Of a stretch of 64,000 bases of DNA, positions 40,973 through 47,009 are shown one piece after another. Source of the DNA: Mobula hypostoma (lineage: Eukaryota); NCBI RefSeq assembly GCF_963921235.1, contig NC_086108.1:72046001-72110000 (forward strand), written 5' to 3'. A program made the position numbers and the translations under genes. Numbering within the stretch: the first letter of the stretch is position 1; each line of letters begins with the position of its first letter. The notes beneath the pieces were generated by a model that saw only the letters and a list, made by a program, of their open reading frames with translations, did not search any database and was not told the DNA's origin.

Positions 40973-41838
40973 CCAAAATAATTACTTTGATTACAATAAT
41001 GGACAAATATTCAACCATTGTGCAGCTATGCAGGTAAGTTTGCAATTTGTTTTTCAGGGGGAGAAATATCTGGTTTCTATTTTGAGCAAAAATAACAATA
41101 TACGGATAGCAACCTTTACATAAGGAAGAGATGATCCCCATTCCTTCAGCAATGTTTATCAGACAACTGATACAGTCTGACAAGCCCTGCACTGACATCA
41201 ATGTAGCAGAATGTATGCTGGAAGAGACATTGATCTTATAGCAATCTAATGTAAATCATGTAAGCAAGTGGAGCAATATTTTTAGTGCTGTAAATGGCCA
41301 CATCAGTATGTACTGTTACGTGTATTTGAAATTTCAGTACCTTAATAATTCTCTTAATGTGATTCATGGACAGGAACAACCAGTCACTGGTTTTAAAATT
41401 ACACTGCTCCTTTCCTTCCATTTAGCTTTCTATGTTAAAATGACCATGAGAGCTGCAGAAAAGGTACACAGCATCAGGATGGACTCTGCCATCACACTGA
41501 AGTAGGTTCTTCCAGGTTTGTGCTAGTAAACCAGGATTCAGCTCTGATATCTGAGTCGAATCGCTTGAGCTCCTCTGCTGTCCCTGCTTGGGTAAGATTT
41601 GGATTGTTTCCCAGCAACTCATGCCTTGTCTGGCTGTAACTCAGGCTGTCCCCTATTCTATTGTTACCATTGTTTGTTAAAAATGCACAAATAGCTGATT
41701 GATTGACATTTTTAGTTTCATCTTCAAATCTTTTTGTTGACTTCTACACTACTCTTCAGCCAAAACAATCCCATTCCTTCATGACACTACTTTCCTAATT
41801 ATGGATAACTATTTCTTATTTCAAATCTATTCACATTC

Positions 41839-42064
41839 TGTGGTAAACCATATATATGTTGTAACTGGGTTAACTGTCTGGACATACCCCTCTGCTGACT
41901 GCCCCGTGGCTCCTCCCACAGTTCCTGAATAAAGGTGTTTCGCCTTGCCCCTCCCCCTCAGTCCGGGGGCAGACACTCACCATGGAGGTCGTATTGTACA
42001 GTGAATAAAAGCCTTTCAGTATTTTACCCAACTTCAGTCTTTTGGAGTTATTGAAGGTGCTTCA
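41839..42064 (+). repeat. 5' LTR of the Gypsy element (226 bp)
   Basis: TGTGGTAAACC...TTGAAGGTGCTTCA; direct repeat of 45424-45660. Confidence 0.95.
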
Positions 42065-42090
42065 ATTTTATTCGCTGTAAACTTTAAAGC

Positions 42091-42810
42091 ATGGACAAAG
42101 CTCTGAGACCCGACAAGTTAGACCTTGATCCACAAATGCCAGAAGCTGGAAACGCTTTCGAACTCTGGCTGGCCTGCTTCGAAGCGTATCTAGAGGAGAT
42201 TAAGGTGACCGACCCCGTAGCGAAGTGCAGAGTTCTACTCTCCAGGGTCAGTCCACGGGTCTATTCGCTGATCAGAGACCAGCCGAGCTACGACAGCGCA
42301 ATGAGTGCACTCAAAGGACAATACCTGTGGCCGATAAACAGCGTCTACGCACGACATCGCATAGCGACTCGGCGACAACGGCCCGGGGAATCAAGTGCTG
42401 AGTTCATCCAAGCCTTACAGACACTCATGCGAGCCTGTAATTGCCAGGAGCTGACGGCGGCGCAGCATGCAGAACTCCTAGTGAGGGACGCCTTCGTCAC
42501 GGGGACCAGGTCAGTGTACGTGTGCCAGCAGCTGTTGAAAAATGCCGATCTTACCTTAAGTTCGCCGATCGAGCTGGCCGAGACGTTGGAGGCTGCTCTG
42601 CATAATTCCGAGGCTCTCCAGGCACGTGATCCCCTGACGGCCTCATGGGCGCTGCAGACCCCGCAACCTGCCAGCGAATCGACCTCGGCTGCCCCCAGTC
42701 GCGAGTACGCAAAGTCCTCGAGAAGCACCCCCAGAAACGCTGCCCGGCTCGACAAGTTACTTGCTCCAGCTGCAGAAAGAAGGGCCACTTCTCCAAGGTC
42801 TGTAAGTTCA
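42091..42810 (+). pseudogene. gag: Gypsy gag (capsid region plus zinc knuckle), frameshifted near 42700
   Basis: MDKALRPDKLDLDP...RRQRPGESSAEFIQALQTL...RDAFVTG; knuckle HPQKRCPARQVTCSSCRKKGHFSKVC lies in the next frame. Confidence 0.85.
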
Positions 42811-42929
42811 AACCGCCAGTGGGATCGAGCAGCGCCGCGTGCGAGACATGGGGTCGGCCATTTTGGTCGGTGCCCCCTCCCACAGCCTACGACCAAAGGG
42901 TGCTCACGGGGCACCCCACTGCGCTGGAC

Positions 42930-43968
42930 CAAGACAGCGACTCAACCCTGGCTTCCGTGACCCTCGACCAAAGCGCTCCCCACCAGCTTGCAAGGTCAAT
43001 GATGGACATCCTGGTGGAGGGGCACAGGACAAACTGCTTGTTTGACACAGGCAGCACGGAGAGTTTTATCCACCCGGACACGGTGCGGCATTGCGGACTC
43101 GTGATACGGCCGGTAAGTCAGAGGGTCACCATGGCTTCCGGTCGCATACAACAGACATGTCCTTGGAGGGCGCAGGTGGTCGTTGTTCGGAACGGGGAGA
43201 AAAATAGGATGGTTGTAGACTATAGCCAGACCATCAATAGGTTCACGCAGCTCCCCATCCGCCGGGAGGACCGCCCTTACACCACCTTCGAGGCGGGCGG
43301 CAGGCTTTATCAATTCCTGCACGTCCCTTTTGGTGTCACGAATGGTATATCTGTCTTCCAGAGGGCAATGGACTGGATGGTGGACCAATGCCAACTGAAG
43401 GCCACGTTCCCATATCTGGATAACATCACCATCTGCAGTAATGACCGGCAGGATCAAGACAACAACCTCCAAAAATTTCTCCAAGCGGCCAAAGCCTTCA
43501 ACCTCACCTATAACAAGGACAAGTGTGTATTCGGGACCACCCAACTTGCTATCATTGGGTGTGTGTTAGAGAATGGAGTCATTGGCCCTGACCCCGACCA
43601 TATGCGCCCCCTGTTGGAACTCCCTCTTCCCAATACCCTCAGAGCCCTCAAAAGGTGCGTGGGCTTCTTTTCATATTATGCCCAATGGGTCTCTAACTAC
43701 GCAGACAAGGCCCGCCCCCAGTCAAGTCAACCACATTCCCCCTCTCACCCGAGGCCCGCGCGGCCTTCAGCCGCATAAACGGGGACATTGCCAAAGCAGC
43801 AATGCATGCGGTGGATGAGGCCATTCCCTTCCAAGTAGAGAGTGACGCCTCCGACTTTGCGCTGGCTGCTACCGTCAACCAGGCAGGAAGACCAGTGGCG
43901 TTCTTCTCCCGTACCCTTCAAGGCCCTGAAATTCGGGACTCCACGTTGGAGAAAGAGCCCAGGCCATA
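42930..43968 (+). pseudogene. pol: Gypsy pol: protease, deleted RT, start of RNase H
   Basis: LFDTGSTESFI (PR); PWRAQVVVV, RMVVDY, VPFGVTN, YLDN (RT); VESDASDFALAA and RPVAFFSRTL (RH) after a frameshift near 43720. Confidence 0.9.
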
Positions 43969-45354
43969 ATGGAAGCTGTTAGGCACTGGAGGCACTACCT
44001 TGCCAGTAAAAGGTTCACCCTGCTAACTGACCAGCGCTCAGTCGCATTCATGTTTAATAATCAGCAGCGGAGCAAAATCAAAAATGATAAAATTCTGAGG
44101 TGGAGAATCAAACTCTCCACCTACAACTATGACATCATGTACAGGCCTGGGAAGCTCAACGAACCCTCCAATGCCCTATCCCGGGGAACGTGCGCCAGCG
44201 CGCAGATCGACCGGCTATACGCCCTACATGTAGACCTTTGCCACCCGGGAGTCACCCGGCTTTTCCACTTCATGAAAGCCCGGAACCTGCCTTACTCCCT
44301 TGAGGATATCAGGACGATGACCAGGGACTGCCAAGTCTGCGCAGAGTGCAAACCGCACTTCTACCGACCCGAAAAGGCACCACTCAGCAAGGCCACCCGT
44401 CCCTTTGAGCGACTGAGTGTTGACTTTAAGGGCCCCCTTCCCTCCTCCGACCGCAATGTGTACTTTCTTAACGTAATTGACGAGTACTCGCGGTTCCCCT
44501 TCGCCATCCCCTGCCCCGACATGACTACCACGTCAGTTATAAAAGCCCTGCGCAAGCTCTTCACTCTGTTCGGATACCCATGCTATATCCACAGTGACAG
44601 AGGGTCCTCGTTTATGAGTGACGAGCTGCGCCAATATCTACTGGCTAGGGGAATTGCAACCAGTAGGACCACGAGCTATAATCCCCGGGGGAATGGACAG
44701 GTAGAGAAGGAGAATGGCACGGTGTGGAAAGCCACACTCGTAGCCCTCAGGTCAAAGGGACTGCCGGTCTCCCGCTGGCATGAAGTCCTTCCCGAGGCAC
44801 TCCACTCCATCCGCTCCCTGTTATGCACAGCCACCAATGCCACCCCTCATGACCGGCTCTTTTCTTTTCCCAGAAAATCGACCACAGAAACCACCCTACC
44901 AACTTGGCTGATGTCCCCGGGGCCAGTGCTGCTCCGGAAACATGCGAGGAGCAATAAATACTCCCCGATCGTCGAGAGGGTTCACTTACTTCATGCAAAC
45001 CCCCAGCATGCTTATGTGGTTTTACCTGATGGGCGGGAGGACACGGTCTCCATCCGTGACCTGGCGCCCGCAGGAGCACCGGGTCCCTACCCTGAACACT
45101 CCGTGGTGACTATTAACCCCGTATCCACCGATATATGTACCCATGAGACACCGCGCACTCCAAGCCCTACACAGACACCACACGACACTCCCATACCGGG
45201 CGCGACGCACACGCACGAGGGATTAACAACGCCTAACGTGCCGGCACCTCACGTCAGGCCAGAGCCAGCACAACCGCAGTTGCTAATGCAGTCACCACCG
45301 GTGCTACGTAGATCACAGCGACGGACTCGACCGCCTGATAGACTTGACCTGTAG
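43969..45354 (+). CDS. pol: Gypsy pol C-terminal ORF: RNase H end and complete integrase (461 aa, open)
   Basis: LTDQRS, YRPGKLN; HHCC motif HVDLCHPG...CQVC; catalytic SVDFKGP / HSDRGSSF / GNGQVE; no chromodomain. Confidence 0.92.
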   Translation: MEAVRHWRHYLASKRFTLLTDQRSVAFMFNNQQRSKIKNDKILRWRIKLSTYNYDIMYRPGKLNEPSNALSRGTCASAQIDRLYALHVDLCHPGVTRLFHFMKARNLPYSLEDIRTMTRDCQVCAECKPHFYRPEKAPLSKATRPFERLSVDFKGPLPSSDRNVYFLNVIDEYSRFPFAIPCPDMTTTSVIKALRKLFTLFGYPCYIHSDRGSSFMSDELRQYLLARGIATSRTTSYNPRGNGQVEKENGTVWKATLVALRSKGLPVSRWHEVLPEALHSIRSLLCTATNATPHDRLFSFPRKSTTETTLPTWLMSPGPVLLRKHARSNKYSPIVERVHLLHANPQHAYVVLPDGREDTVSIRDLAPAGAPGPYPEHSVVTINPVSTDICTHETPRTPSPTQTPHDTPIPGATHTHEGLTTPNVPAPHVRPEPAQPQLLMQSPPVLRRSQRRTRPPDRLDL

Positions 45355-45423
45355 ATATACTTGTCTTAAATATTGTCAGTCACTTCACCCCACGGGACTC
45401 TTTGTAAAAAAAAGAAGGATGAA

Positions 45424-45660
45424 TGTGGTAAACCATATATATATATATATGTTGTAACTGGGTTACCTGTCTGGACACGCCCCTCTGCTGACTGCCCCTG
45501 CGGTGCCTCCCACAGAGTCCTGAATAAAGGTGATTTCACCGTGCCCCTCCCCCTCAGTCCGGGGGCAGATGCTGAGCATGGAGGTCGTATTGTACAGCGA
45601 ATAAAAGCCTTTCAGTGTTTTACCCAAATTCAGTCTTTTGGAGTTATTGAAGGTGCTTCA
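45424..45660 (+). repeat. 3' LTR of the Gypsy element (237 bp, expanded TA repeat)
   Basis: Direct repeat of 41839-42064, preceded by the PPT. Confidence 0.95.
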
Positions 45661-47009
45661 CATTCTCAATTTCTGATTCCACAATCCATGCCTATCGTTT
45701 CCTTCCTCCATTAATGTAAAATTGTTTTTAACATACTGCAACATATATAATTATGTTAATGTCAGCCATTGCCTCCATTGGATTTAGCCAGTTTTATTGC
45801 TATTAATAATGTTATTTTCTGTGATCTATAAGTTATGTTTTATGGAAGTGCCAATTATTTCTCTTTGGTTGTTATCTTCAAAATCTTCAATATTCCCTTT
45901 TAAAAATATACACACATCCCTTTTTGGCAAATGTATTATCTTAAATATTATAAAGGAAATTCAGTATTCAAACTTGGGATACCTCACTAACTTCCATAAA
46001 CAATTGGAGATTGGCACTATTTCATCAACCATTCTGAGAGTGGCTAGTTCAAGGAGCAGGAAAACAGTTTTAAAGCAGTCGGTAGATACAGAAATGAAGT
46101 TAGGGATAAAGAAAACGGGGGACTGACTATAATCTGGATTTCACTGCTTTTAGAGATGGTAAGCACAAAGTTATTAAAGGTTTCATGAAGGATTTATGTA
46201 GGCACTTGAACATTCTGTTTGTTTTGGCCGTGGTTAACTGGTACCTGGGAGGTTGTGGGTCCAAGCCCACTTTTGACTTCAAATGCTGTATAATAATTCT
46301 GGCTGAGTGTAATTGCTTGAAATGAAAACTTGGCTGCCAATTATTTGCTTTTATATAGTAAGGAAACCTAGATCATTTCAACTGTTGGTAGGTCTGTAAC
46401 AAATAAAGCTTCCCATCCCCCGCCTACTCCAATTAATCAAAACATAAGCATTTGTCTTTCTGGCTGCTGTGAGCATAACATCACCTTGACAAGACCTCAT
46501 GAGCTTGAATTGCCATTGAACAAGAGTGTCAAACTAAAGTGCAATATCTATTAAATCTCGTAATGTTTGTGTCAAAATGTTTCTATTTTCATGTTGCCTT
46601 TAGATGCTTTGACATTGCTTTTTTTCTATTTCCCATTATCATGCTGCCTGAGTTAAACTTGAAAGTCAGTTTCAGAATAAATTGACTGCTGATTTGGGTA
46701 AGTTATTCAGTGATACTTTAAGGCAGATAAAATGCATGAAAGATTGCCCATGGTCTCCTGGGCAAACTAGCTCTGACATTATGAATGCTCCTGAGAGAGT
46801 GAATGGAGCTGATAGAACAGAACCCTCATCGAAACCTACTGCATCAGTTGCACGTAGTCCAGGTCATTGAATGAAATCTGTTTTACAGGATGGCTGATCT
46901 AATGGAGCTCATCAAAACCAAGACACAAAGAATTGTGTCTTATAAACTGACCCCAAATTTCCAAGACCATTGATCTATTCTACCAGGGCACCTAACAATC
47001 TATGCTTTC

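Follow-up and report, generated by a model that had tools for sequence, protein, structure and literature searches.

The results presented here indicated that a Ty3/gypsy retrotransposon in the genome of Mobula hypostoma carried, directly behind its 5' long terminal repeat (LTR), a 14-nucleotide leader sequence that is likely to be a self-primer binding site of the type used by Tf1, with a transcription start site and a cut that we infer. The leader paired with a stretch of the LTR, the two arms covaried among related elements, the leader lay at a fixed position relative to the end of the LTR, and a tRNA primer site was absent. The window that was analyzed was a stretch of 64,000 nucleotides of contig NC_086108.1 (forward strand), and the positions given below are positions in this window.

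The element was a decayed copy of 3.8 kb located at 41839-45660. The 5' and 3' LTRs were equal at 210 of 226 aligned bases. The pol region was spread over three frames and contained internal deletions; therefore, this copy is dead. The nearest named proteins were from Mobula (90%) and Hypanus (85-86%), and the named protein relatives of the lineage were found in rays, sharks, a nematode, and an anemone. The features of the copy were as follows.

41834..41838, + strand: left target-site duplication, 5 bp, identical to 45661-45665
41839..42064, + strand: 5' LTR, TG...CA, 92.9% to the 3' LTR
41928..41933, + strand: upstream hexamer, AATAAA in this copy and TATAAA in others; putatively an alternative promoter
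41997..42010, + strand: LTR arm, the predicted self-primer, with AATAAA at 42004-42009 and a predicted cut after 42010
42011..42061, + strand: enclosed R/U5 stem-loop, of which only the opening RCC helix recurs clade-wide
42065, + strand: one-base spacer from the LTR end to the leader arm (CAA in 28/30 families, CAT in 2/30)
42066..42079, + strand: leader arm at the primer-binding-site (PBS) position, reverse complement of the LTR arm
42091..42960, + strand: gag reading frame, broken near its end; the zinc knuckles go on in another frame
42630..45354, + strand: protease, reverse transcriptase (RT), RNase H, and integrase in three frames, no chromodomain; frameshifts near 43715 and 43950, internal deletions
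45406..45423, + strand: polypurine tract, as read in the sequence
45424..45660, + strand: 3' LTR, with the arm copy at 45593-45606
45661..45665, + strand: right target-site duplication

The initial annotation had proposed that the leader pairs with the element's own LTR, and the coordinates that it gave for this pairing were all right. The 14-mer at 42066-42079, which followed A42065, was an exact inverted repeat of 45593-45606 in the 3' LTR and paired with 41997-42010 in the 5' LTR with one G-U. The TGG expected of a tRNA primer site was indeed absent at the LTR junction, and the first TGG occurred 27 nt beyond the end of the LTR, within the gag start codon. The region from 41990 to 42090 also folded as claimed, with a predicted energy of -30.2 kcal/mol and a z score of -4.85; none of 200 shuffles were as stable. 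When only strict Watson-Crick pairs with the 5' arm were counted, the window copy had 8 consecutive pairs, a number that 8 of 30 shuffles reached. Thus, the significance of the pairing in the window copy came from the fold and from the relatives and not from the strict Watson-Crick run. The long R-U5 hairpin that had been described formed in the window copy, but its inner stem was family-specific, and what the clade kept was a short helix predicted to open right after the arm in 27 of 30 families. A search of Rfam yielded only two matches, with E values of 2.6 and 5.3.

To find distant relatives, we used an alignment of 50 proteins as the query. This yielded 58 metagenome loci, drawn from the best 80 out of 540 confirmed stretches, together with 11 loci in metagenome-assembled genomes (MAGs); the hosts of these contigs are probably eukaryotic. 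L089-L095 were clade members in contigs filed as bacterial MAGs, which probably reflects eukaryotic contamination of the bins. Among viral contigs, 28 pattern hits produced no confirmed relatives. A gag start was present in 46 of the 69 fetched loci, and in 42 of these 46 the leader formed an unbroken run of 9 or more Watson-Crick pairs. The four loci that failed were degenerate (L074 and L087), 5'-deleted (L088), or had no junction on the contig (L063).

The pairing was examined across 30 families. Pairs 1 to 13 consisted of 383 Watson-Crick pairs, 1 G-U pair, and 6 mismatches (390 positions), and the letters differed between families. At pairs 5 to 13, 263 of 270 positions were Watson-Crick, compared to 136 (maximum, 171) when the arms were permuted among families. 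In 20 families the arms were found by a motif that was blind to pairing, and here 175 of 180 positions were Watson-Crick, compared to 96 (maximum, 128) in 10,000 permutations; in the other 10 families the arms were chosen by best pairing. The motif-based test also listed 8 of the 28 other loci tried, along with duplicates, and 6 were without the motif. Some families were related to each other (L032-L034 and L073/L095), so the counts overstate the number of independent events. Covariation, which the initial annotation had named as a check, was clear in alignment A2, whose 22 rows were cut in register: both sides changed at 10 of 13 pairs, in 66 cells. None of 500 shuffles reached 66 both-side changes, registers that were slid paired at 26-48%, and RNAalifold recovered the same arm helix on its own. 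A chance origin of the pairing was ruled out by the shuffles and permutations.

The geometry of the pairing was also constrained. The leader arm started one base past the CA of the LTR in all 30 families, which is the position that a primer site needs, and a TGG junction was found in none of them. The loop between the arms ranged from 24 to 69 nt, and the LTR arm was followed by GCC or ACC in 26 of 30 families. Within the arm, A was found at -11 in 21 of 30 families, G at -10 in 25 of 30, and a pyrimidine at -9 in 28 of 30, a set of letters that was initiator-like. The length of the complement varied within one family: it was 17-19 bp in L041 and L044 and 13 bp in L042, L049, and L064. This split looked as if longer primers were at times copied into the leader. 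In the region L049:4094-11696, a larger LTR element that had integrase before RT carried, immediately behind its tRNA-type primer site, a nested member of the paired clade.

A DNA search of the 3.5-Gb M. hypostoma genome gave 2935 candidates at first look; 40 of them were scored, and 30 were fetched; the distant gag query had no match in this genome. In the 30 family copies, 396 of the 420 positions of the 14-bp helix were Watson-Crick and 6 were G-U. Divergence within the family was 3.8-4.3% in the arms and 3.7% in U3, so there was no conservation signal for the arms, as expected for decay after insertion. Compensation between T and A at pair 9 (3/5 versus 3/25, p = 0.04) was weak and sat on a CpG. 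A gag query recovered a sister family from this genome; it differed at two pairs, and both differences were compensated. In 20 copies of this sister family, 264 of 280 positions were Watson-Crick, and the sub-variants changed both arms together.

The data presented above make priming by a Tf1-type mechanism likely. Transcription would start at the LTR arm or just upstream, and the arm, being close to the RNA's 5' end, would fold onto the leader arm. The RNase H of the element would then cut at the junction between AAA and RCC, after 42010, and the new 3' end of the arm would prime synthesis that extends over the one-base spacer into U5, with no tRNA involved. R for strand transfer would be supplied by the RNA left from the cut up to the poly(A) site. 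Plus-strand synthesis would recopy the leader from the retained primer in each cycle, or cleavage may need a perfect duplex; the near absence of G-U pairs in the arm helix suggested one or the other. In Tf1, approximately half of the cDNA is described as retaining the PBS copied as single-stranded DNA (PMC11042837). The earlier proposal of tRNA-free priming was well supported, as an inference, by the covariation and by the fixed primer-site position; the origin proposed with it may or may not be independent.

With a start at the initiator-like letters at -11 to -9, the primer would be 11 nt long, like that of Tf1, in which RNase H is described as cutting between bases 11 and 12 (PMC7175516, PMC4600332, PMC10085805). 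The pairing, however, spanned 13-14 bases and was longer than such a primer. Farther upstream, the hexamer at 41928-41933 was TATAAA in 15 of the 30 family copies and AATAAA in 12 of 30, and it lay 32 nt before an initiator-like TCAGTC (A41960). Judged by its letters, the TATAAA/41960 site may mark a start that lies about 40 nt before the arm, in contrast to Tf1. The sister family had AATAAA at this hexamer position in 18 of 20 copies, and no TATA box at a fixed distance recurred across families. The split between TATAAA and AATAAA tracked a variant at 42080 in the leader (25/30 copies), which marked two subfamilies.

The helix could instead conceal the 5' poly(A) signal, or organize the leader for packaging, with some other primer used for reverse transcription. 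HIV-1 has a 5' poly(A) hairpin, and the element resembled it in that AAUAAA was predicted to be paired in the 5' copy; the two differed in that the pairing partner here occupied the PBS position, beyond the LTR, and in that the hexamer was not kept in 9 of 30 families. The suggestion that the signal is hidden in the 5' copy only was plausible for the window copy, where the predicted unpaired probability of the hexamer fell from 0.51 in the 3' context to 0.01 in the 5' context, but would not extend to the whole clade because the hexamer was not in every family's arm. Similar predictions (0.01-0.07 versus 0.17-0.87) were obtained for the window copy and 6 of 8 relatives, with 2 unmappable, and AATAAA or ATTAAA was found in 21 of 30 arms. 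Masking cannot be the reason for the helix, however, because 9 of 30 families had no canonical hexamer in the arm; in 3 of these 9, one was in the loop. L078, which had no signal, kept 15 perfect pairs that included a compensated change within AAA/TTT; in the region L078:1290-1360, the arm ended in GAAGA, the leader had the matching TCTTC, and there was no poly(A)-like hexamer. Masking also requires neither a fixed one-base offset from the LTR nor strict Watson-Crick pairs, and only 1 of 260 pairs in the arm helix was G-U, compared to 33 of 203 in the predicted loop helices. So low a G-U content is more easily explained by copying of the leader from a retained primer, or by a cut requiring a perfect duplex, than by masking. 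In addition, no other primer site was present. We therefore regard masking with a different primer as unlikely; the folding models make masking of the 5' poly(A) signal thermodynamically plausible, and it would be at most a side effect where the arm holds a signal.

Two other sources of the primer were considered. The primer might be the element's own LTR RNA acting in trans, either cleaved as a short RNA from a different transcript or produced by a host small-RNA pathway. Such a primer would explain the covariation and the strict pairing equally well and would need no start at the arm, and LTR-matching contigs were present in sequencing runs that were guessed to be RNA. On the other hand, the short loop and the predicted helix right after the arm favored folding in cis, we know of no precedent for an LTR-derived primer acting in trans, and this explanation seemed quite improbable. 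Priming by a host tRNA fragment, with an incidental match to the LTR, was found to be highly improbable. Although half-tRNA priming is on record in Ty1/copia lineages (PMC6317226), the leaders here differed between families, even in one genome, and each leader followed its own LTR. The best match between the leader and a host tRNA was 5 nt, in a set of only 5 distinct tRNA-Lys genes that was too small to count, and a 12-mer pattern count of 869 compared to 135 in the control says nothing about tRNA.

To place the lineage, a tree was built from RT, RNase H, and integrase blocks (546 columns). The paired elements fell together in a single clade (100/100) with a long stem, and the genome's sushi-like, Mag-like, and two further gypsy groups lay outside it. 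The group labels were our own, since the named references Tf1, Mag, and SURL and the fungal members were not in the tree, and the label selfTAAA denoted clade membership and covered rows, including all P rows, whose leader pairing was not scored. As for the claim of independence from Tf1/sushi, RT placement put the clade outside the six sushi-like rows of its own genome (both 100/100), but with more than one candidate sister group, so that its origin may or may not be independent. A sister relationship to sushi had support of 62/90 in a 36-row tree. In an AU test on a 17-row tree, the p values were 0.46 for a Mag-like sister, 0.25 for sushi, and 0.15 for a third group, so neither the sushi nor the Mag-like sister was rejected. 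Scores obtained with Ty3 from the PDB were no help in placing the clade.

As the initial annotation had stated, a chromodomain was absent; this was true of the window's four frames, of all 12 scanned relatives, and of the Pfam lists of 120 homologs, and 3 of 4 sushi-like integrase frames that served as a positive control contained one. Thus, the lineage is not a chromovirus by domain content. The gag had also been called Mag-like, and a double zinc knuckle was found (the pattern was present in 95 of 120 homologs, and the first knuckle was decayed in the window copy), but the lineage may or may not belong to Mag. A protein atlas returned generic gag clusters only. It is possible, although we hold the idea only tentatively, that a widespread animal gypsy lineage without a chromodomain evolved self-priming independently of Tf1/sushi by recruiting the poly(A)-signal stretch, such that a single helix would serve for priming, be rewritten from the primer in every cycle, and, in most families, keep the 5' poly(A) signal silent.

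Comparison with known systems placed the elements closest in design to Tf1 and Tf2 (Schizosaccharomyces pombe), Tj1, Tosmo1-3, and Tf1/sushi elements generally, which are described as having a PBS right after the 5' LTR that pairs with the LTR and uses no tRNA. In contrast to Tf1/sushi, the lineage described here lacked a chromodomain and SH3_Tf2-1, had a double zinc knuckle, and formed a separate pol clade. The LTRs were short and the loop was 24-69 nt, whereas it was about 175 nt in the sushi-like elements of this genome, and the arm was 13-14 bp, unlike that of Tf1, and usually lay over the poly(A) hexamer. A third duplex after the leader arm, as in the Tf1 "pretzel", was not apparent in the 30 families (-7.4 versus -6.9 kcal/mol for shuffled sequences; better than shuffles in 17/30). 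Several control elements from the same genome had TGG-type sites and no self-match near the junction. Among the chromodomain-group controls with LTR pairs, 2 of 7 kept an 11-base self-match, located about 175 nt inside the LTR and with an identical one-base offset. The sushi-like chromodomain-group elements with an 11-base match between LTR and leader were L152 and L153 (G000 C62:25162300-25172200 and C12:108876100-108886000). Two young Gmr1-like elements, L137 and L138, had integrase before RT and intact frames of 1560-1580 aa; L137 was a tandem pair.

Two Cys/His knuckles in gag are a trait of Mag elements. The Mag lineage (A, B, and C clades; SURL) shared these knuckles and short LTRs with the lineage described here, which differed in having no tRNA site; moreover, the tRNA-primed double-knuckle elements of the genome formed a separate 100/100 clade. 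Mosquito Mag elements are reported to have tRNA-Leu, -Ser, or -Arg sites (PMC3286476). Self-priming has also been inferred from sequence in the plant TAR (Houba, Osr-1) copia and Tcn1 lineages (PMC6317226), which lie outside Tf1 itself, so repeated origins already have precedent. Those lineages are copia elements or chromoviruses and occur in plants, whereas the elements studied here belonged to an animal gypsy lineage without a chromodomain.

Remarks that an element is self-primed may be found in Repbase entries. In the papers that we surveyed together, as far as the text available from them goes, self-priming was on record for Tf1/sushi, Tcn1, and TAR copia (PMC3601003, PMC6317226, PMC8220671, PMC13383693, PMC4600332, PMC2836005, PMC6934838, PMC7175516, PMC6238403, PMC8556966, PMC13524379, PMC3286476, PMC11042837, PMC10085805, PMC5341516). 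No description of self-priming in an animal gypsy clade without a chromodomain was found in a literature search that covered the freely available main text of papers. Surveys of molluscs and annelids describe many MolGy and PolGy clades and do not mention a PBS in the main text, and the clade may already have a name, for example among these. The clade name "Smaug" found no support in the literature searched.

The mechanism itself is not new. In the text surveyed, self-priming is taken to be what marks Tf1/sushi chromoviruses among gypsy elements. Presence of the signature in another large gypsy lineage would imply that priming without a tRNA has either an earlier origin or more than one, and it explains why PBS searches based on tRNA leave these elements blank. 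The exact predicted cut (AAA/RCC) and the natural compensated variants make the mechanism testable.
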